Position numbers and translations under genes: made by a program. Below, piece after piece: positions 4,826 through 11,415 of a stretch of 64,000 nucleotides of DNA. Each line of letters opens with the position of its first letter. The stretch's first letter is position 1. The notes beneath the pieces were generated by a model. That model was not told the origin of the DNA and searched no databases. It was given only the letters and a program-made list of their open reading frames with translations. This stretch comes from an uncultured Chryseobacterium sp. (GTDB lineage: Bacteria > Bacteroidota > Bacteroidia > UBA10329): the NCBI GenBank assembly GCA_964457245.1, contig CAYWET010000003.1:77006-141005 (forward strand), read 5' to 3'.

Positions 4826-6994
4826 TCAGTTTTCCTCATTCGCCCAGCCGACCACGGCCAAGTCTATCTGCCGCTTTTCGAGAGAGACAGCCAGCACCTT
4901 CACCACTACGGCATCGCCAAGGGTGTAAGAGTTTCCGGTGGTGGAACCAACTACGCTCATGGTGTCTTCATCAAAATCGTAGAAGTCGTCTGGAAGGTCG
5001 CGCAAGCGGATCATGCCTTCGCATTTGTTCTCCTTGATCTCTACAAAGATTCCCCATTCGGTTACGCCAGAAATAAGCCCTTCGAACTCATCTCCAATAT
5101 GGTCTTTGAGGAACTTGGCCTGCATGTATTTGGTACTTGCCCGCTCGGCCTCGGTGGCCTTCTTCTCCATATCGGAACTATGCAGACAGAGGTCTTCGTA
5201 ATCTTTATTGTAGGCCGATTTTCCGCCATCGAGGTAACGCTGTAGTAGCCGATGCACCATTACATCAGGGTACCTTCTGATAGGTGATGTGAAGTGCGTG
5301 TAATAATCGAACCCGAGACCGAAATGACCGATGTTGTCGGTGCTGTATTCGGCTTTAGCCATGCAACGGATTGCCAGTGTGCTGAGCATATTCTCCTCGC
5401 CTTTTCCTTTGATATCGGCTAGGAGTTTATTCAACGATTCGGTGAGGATCCTACGTGGCCCCAGCTGCACTTTATAACCTAGCTGACCAGCAATTTCCAC
5501 CAGCATTTCCAAGCGTTCCTGCTGTGGATCGTCATGAATACGATAGACAAACGTTTTTGGCTGCCCTTGCTTCGGGTTTCCGATAAAAGCGGCCACTTGC
5601 TTGTTGGCAAGCAACATAAATTCCTCAATGAGTTTGTTGCTATCCTTGTATTCCTTCAGGTAAACCTCAATCGGGTTGCCTTCATCATCCAGACGGAACT
5701 TCACTTCTTCCTTCTCGAACGCAATAGCCCCGTTGTCGAAACGCTTTTCGCGAAGTTGCTGTGCAAGGCTGTGCATGGTGAGCACCTCCTCTTTCAGCGG
5801 GCCATCTCCTCCTTCTATGATTTTCTGGGCATCATCGTACGTAAAACGTTGGTCTGAATTGATGATGCAACGCCCGAACCATTCGTTGATGACCTTGGCC
5901 TTGTCGTCCATTTCGAACACGGCAGAGAACACGAGTTTCTCTTCGTTGGGACGTAACGAACAGACCTTGTTGCTGAGTTTTTCGGGAAGCATGGGAATGA
6001 CCCTATCCACGAGATAGACCGATGTTGCACGGCTAATGGCTTCTTCATCCAACGCGGTGCCGGGTTGCACATAGTGCGAAACATCGGCAATGTGGACCCC
6101 GATCTCCCAGTTTCCGTTTTCGAGTTTTTGGATGGAGAGGGCGTCATCAAAATCCTTGGCATCATCTGGATCGATGGTGAAGGTGGTTATCTGACGGAAG
6201 TCGCGCCTCATGGCAATCTCATCTGCCGATATCACTTCAGGAATTTCGTCCGCTTCCTGCTCTACATCTTCTGGGAAGTACAGCGGGAAATCGAACTCGG
6301 CCAAGATGGAATGCATCTCGGTTTCCATGTCGCCTGGTTCGCCCAGCACGGTAACCACATGGCCAATGGGGTTGTGCGCACGCTCTGGCCAATCCATCAT
6401 TTTTACAATGACCTTGTCGCCATCTTGCGCGCCTTTCAATTCTCCTAACGGGATGAAGAAATCGACCGGCATATTGCGGTTATCGGGCACCATGAAGGCG
6501 ACCTTGCTCTTGCGGTTAATGGTGAGTTTTCCGACAAAGGTTTCGCGCGCACGCTCGAGCACCTCCACCACTTCTCCTTCTATTCTACTGCCTTTATGGT
6601 TGGCGTACACATGCACCTTGACGGTATCGCCCGGCAGTGCTTGACGCACCTTACGCGGTGAGATGCGGATATCTGTATCGAACTCGGCCACGGTGACGTA
6701 CGCGGTGCCGGTACTGGTAATATCAACTTTGCCCACCAGTTTCGGTGCGGGCTTATGCTTGAGTTGGTACTTGCCTCTTTCGACTTCGCGCACCAAGCCA
6801 TCCCCTTTCATTTGGTTGAGGGTTTGCGCCAGTTTGGCTCTTCCGTCTTTATCGGTGATCTCTAGCCGCTTGGCTATCTGTTTATAATTGAGTGCCCTGT
6901 TTGGGCTTTTTCGCATGGTTTCCAGAATGGGTTCTTGGAAAACCGATTGGGAACGGCCTTTCTTCTTACCCTTAGCTTTCTTCTTCTTTTTCAA
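4826..6994 (-). CDS. rnr: Ribonuclease R
   Basis: 722 aa. It has a Lys-rich N-terminus, an RNB core (TIDPDDAKDFDDALS; HFGLGFDYYTHFTSPIRRYPD) and a C-terminal S1 domain (GLISGVTEWGIFVEI). Confidence 0.95.
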   Translation of the reverse strand: MKKKKKAKGKKKGRSQSVFQEPILETMRKSPNRALNYKQIAKRLEITDKDGRAKLAQTLNQMKGDGLVREVERGKYQLKHKPAPKLVGKVDITSTGTAYVTVAEFDTDIRISPRKVRQALPGDTVKVHVYANHKGSRIEGEVVEVLERARETFVGKLTINRKSKVAFMVPDNRNMPVDFFIPLGELKGAQDGDKVIVKMMDWPERAHNPIGHVVTVLGEPGDMETEMHSILAEFDFPLYFPEDVEQEADEIPEVISADEIAMRRDFRQITTFTIDPDDAKDFDDALSIQKLENGNWEIGVHIADVSHYVQPGTALDEEAISRATSVYLVDRVIPMLPEKLSNKVCSLRPNEEKLVFSAVFEMDDKAKVINEWFGRCIINSDQRFTYDDAQKIIEGGDGPLKEEVLTMHSLAQQLREKRFDNGAIAFEKEEVKFRLDDEGNPIEVYLKEYKDSNKLIEEFMLLANKQVAAFIGNPKQGQPKTFVYRIHDDPQQERLEMLVEIAGQLGYKVQLGPRRILTESLNKLLADIKGKGEENMLSTLAIRCMAKAEYSTDNIGHFGLGFDYYTHFTSPIRRYPDVMVHRLLQRYLDGGKSAYNKDYEDLCLHSSDMEKKATEAERASTKYMQAKFLKDHIGDEFEGLISGVTEWGIFVEIKENKCEGMIRLRDLPDDFYDFDEDTMSVVGSTTGNSYTLGDAVVVKVLAVSLEKRQIDLAVVGWANEEN

Positions 6995-7185
6995 GTAGTT
7001 GTATTCAAATTATGGATGCAAAGGTAGGGATATTGGAAGGGGCGGAGTTAACGGGTGATGAAGTTATGAAGTAGGTATCAGTGAGTAACTAGCAAGAAAA
7101 TCAGAATACGTCCGTAAATAGGTTACTAACTTGCATCCAAGTTTTAAACCGCAAAGGGACTAAACCAAATCTAATTCAACGATTG

Positions 7186-8409
7186 ATGGAGATTTCGCTA
7201 AAAGAAGAAAGGAAACAATCAGTTGCACATCAGCTTACTCCCAAAAAATCGATACCCCATATCATTAAGTACATGGGGTCAAAACGAAGCCTAATTGATT
7301 TTCTAGCAGAGTCTTTCAACGAAATTTATGATGGAGAGCCAATCTGTGACCTGTTTGCTGGAACCGCAGTTGTTGGGGGAGCGTTTGGCGGTGGAGCCCA
7401 GATCTATTCCAATGACATACAAGAGTATTCAGCTGTACTAGCAAAAACATACCTTGGAGATTATGACTGGTCTATCTATGAAAACGTTCTTGAGAGCGTC
7501 ATAGAAATAGCTCAATCTCACGTTAGTCAAGTTCGCAGACTATACCCTGATCTCGTATTCGATTACACGGTAGATTTAGACTTCAATTCCTTTAACGCGT
7601 TAGAACAAGAACAGCAAGAACTCATCTATTTTGATTTCAATGACCTAGAGCATCACCTATTCATTAAGAATTACTCTGGAACATATTGGTCATTTGACCA
7701 GTGTCTTTGGATTGATGCTATTCGAACCGCTGCTAATAGCTACTCTGATACTCCCGTTTACAATGTAATTCTATCAAGCCTCATGTTTGCCATGGCGTAC
7801 AATGCCCAAAGTACTGGGCATTATGCCCAGTATAGAGATGCATATGATGAGGTTTCAATGAAGGATATAATTACCCATCGTAACAAGGAAATTGTCCCGT
7901 ATTTCAGACGAAAGATGGAAGAGCTGATGGCGTTTACGGAATCAAATAAATTGAACCATGTTTATTCATCCATAGACTACCGGGAATGTTTAGACCAAAT
8001 TCCTGAAGGAACTCTGGTCTATGCAGATCCTCCTTACGTATTCGTTCACTATTCAAGATTCTATCATGCTTTGGAAACTTTAGTATTGTATGACTACCCT
8101 GAGGTTAAGTACAAAGGGAGATATCGAACCGACCGTCACCAATCACCTTTTTGCAAAAGAACCGAGGTAGTGGGAGCTTTTGAAGATTTGTTTGAAAAGG
8201 TGGCTTCCAAAAATTCGAAACTTGTTTTAAGCTATTGTAATACGGGAATGATTACTTTGAATAACATTCTGGACATTGCTGCTGACAAATTGAGTGATGA
8301 GTATCGAGTATATACCAAAGAGATGGATTACCTGCACAGCACAATGGGTCGATTGAAAGATAAATCAAGAGATGTGAAAGAATATTTGGTTATTGCAGTA
8401 CCTGAGTAA
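7186..8409 (+). CDS. D12-class (Dam-like, alpha-group) N6-adenine DNA methyltransferase
   Basis: Motifs found: KYMGSKRSL (motif X-like), DLFAGTAVVGG (FxGxG, SAM binding), NDIQEY, and the catalytic ADPPY (DPPY codons at 8026-8037). About 200 aa between motif I and DPPY is a putative target-recognition region. ATG 7186 follows the track's TTG at 7183. Confidence 0.8.
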   Translation: MEISLKEERKQSVAHQLTPKKSIPHIIKYMGSKRSLIDFLAESFNEIYDGEPICDLFAGTAVVGGAFGGGAQIYSNDIQEYSAVLAKTYLGDYDWSIYENVLESVIEIAQSHVSQVRRLYPDLVFDYTVDLDFNSFNALEQEQQELIYFDFNDLEHHLFIKNYSGTYWSFDQCLWIDAIRTAANSYSDTPVYNVILSSLMFAMAYNAQSTGHYAQYRDAYDEVSMKDIITHRNKEIVPYFRRKMEELMAFTESNKLNHVYSSIDYRECLDQIPEGTLVYADPPYVFVHYSRFYHALETLVLYDYPEVKYKGRYRTDRHQSPFCKRTEVVGAFEDLFEKVASKNSKLVLSYCNTGMITLNNILDIAADKLSDEYRVYTKEMDYLHSTMGRLKDKSRDVKEYLVIAVPE

Positions 8410-8411
8410 GC

Positions 8412-10229
8412 ATGTCTGCCAAAAACGATTTTTCAAAAGTTAGGGGTTCTTGGACCAAGTTTGATTCTGTAAAAGTTTTAGCTGTGGTGTACAGCATAGA
8501 GACCCTGGAGAGGTTCAAAGCAAAACAGATTCAAATTGATGAACCAATACTTCGTTCATTTTTAGGCATTAAGTCGCTTAAAGATCCATTACCAAAATAT
8601 TGGTTGGAGATTCAAGACTACCCTCAGGAAAAAAGGCTTTTCGCACTTTTTGCCAGCTTATTCCGAAATGGCAAGGTGATACGGCTGTTTGCGGAAAAAT
8701 ATTCCAAAGGAGAAATGAAGGGTGTAATGAAGCTTGGCTCACCCCATTCAAAGCAAGAGACCAACCTCAGGAGTGCCTTAATAGAATCAGGTGCTGCAGC
8801 GTTGATTTATAGAAAGTCTGATTCGGTACCTTATGACTTCTCCCCCATATTTCAAAATCCGAAAGTGGGACGATTGTTTAAAGAGGTCTTGAAAGAAAGA
8901 GTATCGCGCATCGCGAAAAACCCTACTGAAGGTGAGTTTTATGCGGTTTGTGAGGAAAATCAATTCCACAAGGCACTTAGTCTGACAAAAACTCAGTTCC
9001 GAAACTGGCTTGAGGGTGAAACTGATATAAATTACAGTGAAACTTCAGCAAATTATCTCGATGAGATTCGAATTTCTGGGTTCTACTCGATTGGCGAAAT
9101 TATTCTCTCAGGGTTGAAGGATACCAAAGAGATATACCTACTTGGGGAAAATGGAGATGGCAAATCCTTAGTCTTGATGGCAATTTATCTTGCTTTCAAC
9201 CGACATTTCGTTTCGGAACAAACCGATCAAGAAAGTACTGGGAAAGCGGTTGATATTATAAGGGCGAACAAAGGTGTCTTCTTAGAAGCTGTCGACAGTA
9301 ATGGCAAAACCTATGGTGCTAAGAATACTGGATATCTGAGCAACCTTTTTGGATATGGAACTCACAGAGGCCGCTATTCAACCGATAATGCTGAGGAGTA
9401 TGGTTTCATGTCTCTGTTCAGTAGCGAAGAGGAACTTACAAATCCTAACTCATGGCTACGAAACCAACGGCATCTAGAATTGGAAAAAGCACTGGGCCAA
9501 AATAACATGGTTGGTGAAAACAAATCACTGCCAAAATCTTTCCCGACTGAACCCTTGTTAGCCATGTTTCATGATTTGCTGGAAAGGAATATTGAAATAA
9601 CATTTAAAGGTCCAGACGTCATTTTTAATGAAAAGGGTGCTCAACTAACTTTTGATCAATTATCTGAGGGCTACAAGAGTATATTAATCTTCGTTTCCGA
9701 CCTTCTGAAACGGCTTCAGGAAAATCAGCCAACCGTTAATGATGTTAAGAAGTTTAAGGGAATCGTAATTGTAGATGAAATTGATCTTCATCTGCACCCT
9801 AAATGGCAGAAAAACATCGTTAAAAAACTTAGGAAGCTGTTGCCGGAAGTCCAGTTTATTCTTTCCACCCACAGCCCAACTATGATTCAGGGCGCATCAA
9901 ATGACGCTGTAATTTATCGCATTTACCGAAACACTGTGGACGGAAAAACGAAAGCTTCCGAACCCTATTACCGAAATGAGCTAAACTACATGATGGTAAA
10001 CACACTACTTACCTCCTCTTTGTTTGGTTTGGACAATTCCCGATTGGATAATGAGAATCAAAATTCAGATACAAGCGAAACCTATTTGCTATACCGAATC
10101 AACGAGATTATTTCTGAAAAACTGGAGCAGGAGAAAAGGGATGGCAAGGAGTTTATCAGTGACGATACGATAGATGAATTAATCAAGAAGGCCATTGACC
10201 AAGAACTTGGAAAAAATGATCAAAATTGA
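8412..10229 (+). CDS. ABC-type (AAA_21/PtuA-like) ATPase with an unassigned ~240-aa N-terminal domain
   Basis: Walker A GENGDGKS (9144-9167), ABC signature LSEGY (9660-9674), Walker B IVIVDEIDLHLHP (from 9762) and H-loop LSTHSP. The start ATG is 2 nt after the methyltransferase stop (TAA gc ATG). Confidence 0.75.
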   Translation: MSAKNDFSKVRGSWTKFDSVKVLAVVYSIETLERFKAKQIQIDEPILRSFLGIKSLKDPLPKYWLEIQDYPQEKRLFALFASLFRNGKVIRLFAEKYSKGEMKGVMKLGSPHSKQETNLRSALIESGAAALIYRKSDSVPYDFSPIFQNPKVGRLFKEVLKERVSRIAKNPTEGEFYAVCEENQFHKALSLTKTQFRNWLEGETDINYSETSANYLDEIRISGFYSIGEIILSGLKDTKEIYLLGENGDGKSLVLMAIYLAFNRHFVSEQTDQESTGKAVDIIRANKGVFLEAVDSNGKTYGAKNTGYLSNLFGYGTHRGRYSTDNAEEYGFMSLFSSEEELTNPNSWLRNQRHLELEKALGQNNMVGENKSLPKSFPTEPLLAMFHDLLERNIEITFKGPDVIFNEKGAQLTFDQLSEGYKSILIFVSDLLKRLQENQPTVNDVKKFKGIVIVDEIDLHLHPKWQKNIVKKLRKLLPEVQFILSTHSPTMIQGASNDAVIYRIYRNTVDGKTKASEPYYRNELNYMMVNTLLTSSLFGLDNSRLDNENQNSDTSETYLLYRINEIISEKLEQEKRDGKEFISDDTIDELIKKAIDQELGKNDQN

Positions 10230-11031
10230 TAAGGATTTAAATGGTGTTCCTCCCTCTCTTCAACTTCCAGAACGTCAGTACTTCTCTGGAACAATTCCGA
10301 GACCGCCCAAAACAACTCATCAAAGACGAAGAGAGTTAATTGACCAAGGTAAATACATTGATACCGCCCAATACAACTCCCGTTACAAACAGTCTGACAC
10401 CAAAGAGGCCTTAAAGCTTCTGTACCATAATAAATGTGCTTACTGTGAACAGGTGGTGGAACAAACACATGTTGAACACTATCGACCAAAGAGCACATAC
10501 TATTGGCTCGCTTACTCATGGGACAATCTTCTATTATCGTGCCCTACTTGTAATAAGCATAAGGATGTTAATTTTCAACTGGACGGCCCAGAGGCAAGTT
10601 TGTTGAATGCAAAGGAAGCGTTGTCGAATATTCATGCCTTGAGGACAAGCTATGATGACACCGAGCTACCTCGGTTAGTAAACCCTGAGGTTACAGATGT
10701 AAGTGGACAAATCGTTTTTAATCAATCAGGCAATGTAGATTCTGCTGACAGCAGACTCGCCTACACAATTGAGGTATGCAAGATAGATAGAGCTACTCTC
10801 AATGATCAACGAAAAAAACTACTTGAAGTGTTTGCCCGCGATGTAAGGTCAGCTCTACTTGAAGCTTCGGACACCAACAAACAAGAACTTCTAGTTGGTT
10901 CAATAATCACAAAATTTATTCGAGATTCTTGTGACAACGAAATGGCCTTTCTTGCGTTTAGACGTTTCGCTATAGCAAGCAACTGGCTTAAAGAAATAAT
11001 CATTGAAGTCAAACGGATGCCATCCAATTAA
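10216..11031 (+). CDS. HNH endonuclease (TIGR02646 / PtuB-like)
   Basis: CAYCEQVVEQTHVEHYRPKSTYYWLAYSWDNLLLSCPTCNKHK (10435-10563) gives CxxC...HxEH...N...CxxC zinc-finger HNH architecture. ATG 10216 overlaps the end of the ATPase gene by 14 nt. The track's TTG at 10195 is an alternative start. Confidence 0.8.
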   Translation: MIKIDKDLNGVPPSLQLPERQYFSGTIPRPPKTTHQRRRELIDQGKYIDTAQYNSRYKQSDTKEALKLLYHNKCAYCEQVVEQTHVEHYRPKSTYYWLAYSWDNLLLSCPTCNKHKDVNFQLDGPEASLLNAKEALSNIHALRTSYDDTELPRLVNPEVTDVSGQIVFNQSGNVDSADSRLAYTIEVCKIDRATLNDQRKKLLEVFARDVRSALLEASDTNKQELLVGSIITKFIRDSCDNEMAFLAFRRFAIASNWLKEIIIEVKRMPSN

Positions 11032-11049
11032 GTTGTGACTAACTAAGCC

Positions 11050-11415
11050 TCACCCACCCCTCTCAATCCGCCTAAGCACCTCCTCAATCTCCTGAGGAGA
11101 TTTACCCACAAGCAATTTCGCCACCTCTGGCACGGTCGGCTTTTTCAGTACACGCAGGTGGTGCTTTGGGTCCCCCTTCCAAGTAAAAAGGTCATTCGGC
11201 AGGCAGTTGAACGTTTCGCACAATCGTGTCATCATACTCAGGCGTATCTCCTTGGGCTCGCCATTCAAGAGTCCACGGGCCTCACTGGCCGTATAGCCAT
11301 GGTTCATTAGAAAAGAACGCCCAGAACGGATGCCGTTCAGCGCTAACAAGCGGTGTATGTCTACATGTATCGTATCATTTGAATTCATGCTTATCACAAC
11401 GTTCTTTAGGTTCAA
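11050..11415 (-). CDS. XRE-family helix-turn-helix transcriptional regulator
   Basis: ...LLALNGIRSGRSFLMNHGYTASEARGLLNGEPKEIRLSMMTRLCETFNCLPNDLFTW is a typical Cro/C1-type HTH with the Bacteroidota xxFNCxPNDLF tail. The true start may be the internal MNSNDT. Confidence 0.7.
   Translation of the reverse strand: MNLKNVVISMNSNDTIHVDIHRLLALNGIRSGRSFLMNHGYTASEARGLLNGEPKEIRLSMMTRLCETFNCLPNDLFTWKGDPKHHLRVLKKPTVPEVAKLLVGKSPQEIEEVLRRIERGG

Follow-up and report, generated by a model that had tools for sequence, protein, structure and literature searches.

What does a PtuA-type ATPase, as found in the anti-phage system Septu, gain from a long N-terminal domain that matches no Pfam or PADLOC family, encoded directly behind a DNA methylase gene? 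The question arose from a three-gene operon in a 64 000 nt stretch of DNA from an uncultured Chryseobacterium sp. (hereafter the window). The operon comprises co-directional and closely spaced genes for a D12 methylase, a 605 aa ATPase (ORF 8412–10229, plus strand) and an HNH protein (Table 1). Only 2 nt separate the methylase stop from the ATPase start, and the ATPase and HNH genes share 14 nt when the latter is read from its ATG at 10216. On inspection of the sequence, the catalytic motifs were intact in all three genes. The cassette (7000–11048 in the window) has a GC content of 0.40, compared with 0.43–0.52 in its flanks.

Table 1. Features of the methylase–ATPase–HNH cassette and its immediate neighbours, in window coordinates
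Feature	Position	Strand	Evidence or remark
RNase R gene	4826–6994	−	One side of the low-GC cassette
D12-class (Dam-like) N6-adenine DNA methyltransferase	7186–8409	+	Pfam PF02086, PADLOC MTase_II
N-domain, ATPase residues 1–205	8412–9026	+	
Linker, ATPase residues 206–212	9027–9047	+	Low model confidence
PtuA-type (OLD-family) ABC ATPase, residues 213–605	9048–10229	+	PADLOC, Pfam, NCBIfam, solved chains, motifs
PtuB-type HNH endonuclease	10216–11031	+	PADLOC, Pfam, NCBIfam, solved chains
Cro/C1-type HTH gene	11050–11415	−	Convergent on the HNH gene

The first-pass annotation of this DNA had placed the Walker A motif at residue 245, behind a long and unrecognized N-terminal region, and both observations held. 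The motif GENGDGKS occupies residues 245–252 (nt 9144–9167), followed by the signature LSEGY (residues 417–421, nt 9660–9674), Walker B VDEID from residue 454 (nt 9771) and the H-loop STHSP from residue 485 (nt 9864–9878), whilst residues 1–224 returned no Pfam or PADLOC match even at E≤10. The region is a genuine, separate domain and not the product of a mis-called start, as 144 homologues of approximately 595–605 aa align with it from residue 1 at 50–59 % identity, and a 40-sequence alignment contains 35 invariant columns at the N-terminus. Because these homologues of around 600 aa are conserved from residue 1, we take ATG 8412 to be the true start; the internal candidates M102, M106 and TTG235 were rejected for the same reason. 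In the structure model the ABC fold begins near residue 213, with beta strands at 216–238 preceded by a floppy linker at approximately 204–215, where pLDDT was 64–66 in blocks spanning residues 201–220 and fell below 50 at 209–212. In three homologues of 719–730 aa (P0131, P0267 and L134, the last at G311:C9:645530–649141), this low-confidence linker is the site of an extra segment of approximately 125 aa that parts the N-domain from the ABC ATPase, and homologues of 727–741 aa have an insert of that length here too. P0142 (741 aa) resembles them in size, and the G311 locus has a D12 methylase upstream (43 % identity).

Assignment of the C-terminal part to PtuA was consistent across resources. 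It matched the PADLOC PtuA model PDLC00287 at 1.6e-45 over residues 184–579 (PtuA models spanned 1e-45 to 1e-25), Pfam AAA_21 and AAA_15, NCBIfam PtuA at 5e-37 and solved PtuA chains at an E-value of 5e-22, with the latter alignments starting at query residue 211–214 or thereabouts. The HNH protein likewise matched PADLOC PtuB (PDLC00316, 8e-47), Pfam HNH (5e-8), NCBIfam PtuB (7e-18) and solved PtuB chains (E-value 4e-6); it has Cys/His motifs at nt 10435, 10468 and 10540, and scored 49.7 bits against TIGR02646, slightly below the cut-off of 52.15. Both proteins fell short of the NCBIfam equivalog thresholds (127.9 vs 500 bits for PtuA, 65.3 vs 150 bits for PtuB). By sequence, then, the window pair belong to the broad PtuA/PtuB families without being equivalogs of the retron Ec78 proteins. 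The distance from Walker A to the signature motif is 172 aa, approximately 90 aa less than the roughly 264 aa of solved retron-Ec78 PtuA (an alignment-derived figure), so the insert between these motifs is reduced as judged from the alignment. The gap had been described as short, which is correct, and the coiled-coil insertion within it as apparently absent; it is shortened, and absence is more than the comparison establishes.

The methylase matched Pfam PF02086 (MethyltransfD12) at 2.2e-18 and PADLOC MTase_II at 3e-34. It starts at ATG 7186 or TTG 7183 and displays the motifs FAGTA (nt 7354) and DPPY (nt 8026). No solved relative, from which a specificity might be guessed, could be found by sequence. 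Beyond the HNH gene, the stop of the Cro/C1-type HTH gene lies 18 nt from that of its convergent neighbour.

The N-domain was refractory to sequence-based recognition. It had no match in NCBIfam, its profile found nothing among PDB sequences at E≤10, and neither the ESM Atlas (no usable match) nor a phage collection (no match) contributed relatives. It is mostly helical, with conserved motifs S13-W-T-K16, W64, K114..T117-N118 and W199, and its net charge of +10 (the ATPase part has −13) agrees with binding of nucleic acid. Foldseek of model 1 against the PDB gave nothing significant. Across two independent models, BrxA (7ZGE, 3BHW) was nonetheless the top and almost the sole PDB fold match, BrxA and SspB together making up the best and nearly the only ones, and the predicted fold of the N-domain is BrxA/SspB-like, a putative tandem (winged-)HTH. 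A very weak resemblance to small winged-helix accessory proteins of BREX-type systems had been noted by eye, and it stands at the level of fold. At the level of sequence it does not: the Pfam BrxA profile (PF08849) gave no N-domain match at E≤10, and hhalign was negative whether run locally or globally and whether 27 or 127 sequences were used, with probabilities of 1.6 % and 1.0 % against an alignment of 14 BrxA sequences. The BrxA HMM found nothing in the genome from which the window derives. An N-terminal S-x-T motif can be seen by eye in both the N-domain and BrxA families, unsupported by any alignment, and a 594 aa ORF at locus L051 with a weak BrxA-HMM match proved unrelated to the N-domain family.

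BrxA (DUF1819) and SspB (DUF4007) act as accessory DNA-binding proteins in defence systems based on modification (PMC9240713, PMC12839542, PMC10853773). At approximately 200 aa, BrxA of BREX and SspB of the Ssp phosphorothioate system are close in size to the N-domain. The latter differs in being fused to enzymes instead of free-standing, in lacking a detectable sequence relation to either protein, and in its surroundings, which are neither those of BREX nor those of Ssp: the neighbouring genes encode a D12 methylase and PtuB.

Searching 1.84 billion representatives with a profile restricted to the N-domain identified 138 proteins. Fusion to a C-terminal PD-(D/E)xK nuclease was seen in 51 representative clusters, with E279, D289 and E302-x-K304 invariant; this nuclease-fused family, of 375 aa, has no solved relative by sequence. 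A further 17 clusters matched the PtuA-type ABC model, approximately 10 fusions of 575–670 aa were McrB-like AAA+ proteins (P0172 matched NCBIfam McrB at 4.5e-36), DGQHR/DndB fusions were present, and Pfam detected longer ABC-ATPase fusions (e.g. P0167 and P0223). The idea that the domain might also be joined to other effectors was thus borne out (PD-(D/E)xK, McrB-like, DGQHR/DndB), whilst its occurrence as a stand-alone gene, also envisaged, yielded no verified case: a search for shorter homologues returned six matches only, all on short contigs, and the 46 short sequences among the profile matches are possibly fragments. Fusion to PtuA, PD-(D/E)xK, McrB-like and DGQHR/DndB engines identifies the N-domain as a reusable N-terminal module, and the N-terminal position is that of the DNA reader in McrB homologues and in enzymes of the FokI/BpuJI type. 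Individual architectures included TPR repeats with the N-domain and an ABC ATPase (P0223, 1532 aa), the N-domain with an Hjc-like nuclease and DndB/DGQHR (P0150, 981 aa) and the N-domain with DGQHR (P0138, 732 aa). In the 3881 aa protein P0181, N-domain profile positions 105–128 matched twelve times with a 227-residue period, which is probably a chance match to a repeat motif and not a true domain.

Mapping of the neighbourhoods revealed a close association with adenine methylases. Among PtuA-type genome loci, a homologue of the window D12 methylase was found immediately upstream in 32 of 34, and PtuB followed downstream wherever the contig extended far enough. The two loci with no adjacent D12 methylase, L033 and L034, are the most divergent members. 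For the nuclease type we sampled 80 metagenome loci and assessed the 24 whose flanks each extended for 1.3 kb or more, all of which had an adjacent N6-adenine methylase, belonging either to D12 (13 loci, 42–50 % identity to that of the window) or to MT-A70 (11 loci). A McrBC-like arrangement on a Roseibium aggregatum plasmid comprised an HTH_17 gene directly upstream of a D12 methylase gene, an N-domain–P-loop NTPase and a DUF2357/PDDEXK_7 McrC-like nuclease, with the methylase 47 % identical to that of the window (E-value 7e-120). A controller-protein role is possible for this HTH_17 product or for the Cro/C1-type HTH protein of the window. With regard to the divergent loci, L033 (5875–8471) and L034 (3890–6570) retain the N-domain–PtuA and PtuB genes, with an N-domain approximately 28 % identical; their neighbours include AAA_14/DUF4143, YARHG and LeuA genes, and a 1272 aa ORF just downstream in L033 (8568–12386) had no Pfam match. 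At another locus (L095:287–4049), an N-domain–PD-(D/E)xK gene adjoins both an MT-A70 and a D12 methylase gene.

Linkage this tight might mean that the N-domain is a protein–protein adaptor through which the nuclease engine is held on the methylase, which alone would recognize the sequence, much as Mod supplies sequence recognition for Res in type III systems. That N-domain carriers almost always adjoin an adenine methylase, and that the window methylase and ATPase genes are so tightly packed, would suit such an arrangement. We nevertheless consider it quite unlikely, since closely related N-domains pair with both D12 and MT-A70 methylases, L033 and L034 have no adjacent methylase, the fold resembles DNA-binding proteins and the N-domain is net basic. 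In a quick maximum-likelihood tree, PtuA-fused N-domains formed one clade (support 100) and nuclease-fused N-domains the other, and within the latter the partner methylase family switched at least five times. Complex prediction for the methylase and N-domain scored 0.04, which gave no answer and is neutral on binding. The most conserved N-domain motifs are common to carriers paired with either methylase family, which is compatible with a generic reader, or with methylases that are isospecific, but would not obviously be predicted of a highly sequence-specific reader.

Taken with the predicted fold, the range of fusions and the charge, this linkage makes a reader of DNA or its methylation state the most plausible of the roles that the first-pass annotation had considered. 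We judge it probable that the N-domain reads either a DNA site or the methylation state of that site, and that the operon is a putative restriction-modification-like variant of Septu. Weighing against this reading are the missing sequence homology to BrxA, the lack of a significant Foldseek result for model 1, the motifs common to carriers with different methylases, and the two divergent PtuA-type loci that have no adjacent D12 methylase. The other role it had raised, a sensor of phage proteins, found no support. More broadly, the N-domain might respond to some non-DNA signal or serve in oligomerization or autoinhibition, with the methylase an unrelated neighbour. Other PtuA subfamilies do bear N-terminal extensions of unknown role: PDLC00287 has approximately 165 pre-ATPase positions unmatched by the window protein, and retron PtuA has approximately 60 residues ahead of the ABC fold. 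We regard this explanation as very improbable, given that single-chain restriction nucleases and McrB-like proteins have the N-domain as well and that it is methylase-linked in three architectures, a pattern not easily reconciled with a phage-protein sensor.

If the N-domain is a reader, the D12 adenine methylase would mark the host copies of a target site, and the putative tandem HTH of the N-domain would bind the unmethylated site, thereby recruiting oligomeric PtuA ATPase to foreign DNA, where PtuA would license bound PtuB, the HNH nuclease, to cut. The constant pair of adenine methylase and N-domain would form the self/non-self unit that sets the target, and the engine behind the N-domain would be interchangeable: a PD-(D/E)xK nuclease, a McrB/McrC-like assembly or, as here, PtuA/PtuB. 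DNA binding by the N-domain, its methylation sensitivity, the target sequence and DNA as the substrate of PtuB are all points that we infer.

Previous work bears on the last of these. Cleavage of tRNA-Tyr in its variable loop has been reported for Septu, and degradation of tRNA-Tyr for retron-Eco7 PtuAB (PMC13096335, PMC12673091), so that DNA cutting by the PtuAB of the window is not assured. The N-domain could accordingly read unmethylated foreign DNA and trigger abortive infection, with PtuA and PtuB cleaving host tRNA in place of the invading DNA; the window proteins are, after all, clear homologues of the reported tRNA cleavers. Against this, the N-domain and methylase also serve classical DNA nucleases (PD-(D/E)xK and McrC-like), which suggests a like-for-like exchange of modules, and an earlier structural study (Li et al. 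2024, cited in bioRxiv 10.1101/2024.10.26.620412) is credited with showing ATP-controlled cleavage of phage DNA by PtuAB. We consider the tRNA-directed outcome unlikely and favour the restriction-like reading, with invader DNA as the substrate.

Septu is recognized by its PtuA6:PtuB2 complex and its anti-phage activity. The ATPase core and HNH partner are clear homologues of those of Septu and of type I-A retrons (Ec78/Eco7), and in the window their genes are adjacent and overlapping. Relative to Septu, the window ATPase adds a 205 aa reader-like N-domain and loci of its type conserve a D12 methylase upstream; relative to type I-A retrons, there is no reverse transcriptase. Septu variants in PADLOC comprise a retron-linked type II and co-occurrence with Hma. 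As in type II-like restriction-modification, a methyltransferase adjoins a nuclease-bearing restriction component, the cassette being kept in nearly all the genome loci (32/34), and the two-gene and McrBC-like paralogous forms carry the methylase family of the window.

The type IIS enzymes FokI and BpuJI join a tandem wHTH recognition domain to a PD-(D/E)xK cleavage domain. An N-terminal DNA reader, a cleavage or motor module and a cognate methylase alongside are features that the window system would share with FokI/BpuJI and LlaJI/McrBC, and the paralogues that combine the N-domain with PD-(D/E)xK, or with McrB-like and McrC-like proteins, reproduce the FokI/BpuJI and LlaJI/McrBC layouts, respectively. 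The engine in the window, in contrast to all of these, is PtuA/PtuB. N-domain searches did not recover FokI or BpuJI, and 2FOK matched the nuclease part only. An OLD-family ABC ATPase with an HNH nuclease in a restriction-modification-like neighbourhood, as in the window, is attributed to Krishnan et al. 2020 in PMC12839542. Our literature searches, whose coverage did not extend to that ABC-ATPase survey (PMC7544218), returned no methylase-linked Septu and no description of the N-domain.

We tentatively propose, with less assurance than we attach to the reading of this single operon, that the N-domain represents an unnamed and widespread BrxA-like family of DNA or methylation-state readers, acting with an adenine methylase as a plug-in specificity module for at least four engines (PD-(D/E)xK, McrB/McrC-like, DGQHR and PtuA/PtuB). 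If so, the version in the window would be a distinct class of ATP-dependent restriction-modification built on Septu, and also a Septu with a known trigger, the unmethylated site. For the unsettled matter of infection sensing by Septu, a variant linked to a methylase and a putative reader offers a tractable case with a predictable and testable trigger. The N-domain fusions record how nuclease engines have been swapped behind a single putative recognition module, and naming the domain would improve annotation of restriction-modification and defence loci that now go by 'AAA family ATPase' or 'hypothetical protein'.

Of 401 genomes sampled from the phylum of the window, 2 had the N-domain, and its overall range takes in Bacteroidota, Pseudomonadota, Planctomycetota and Verrucomicrobiota, a rare and patchy distribution that fits a mobile defence cassette. 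One partial N-domain protein was labelled as originating from a Nitrososphaeraceae archaeon.
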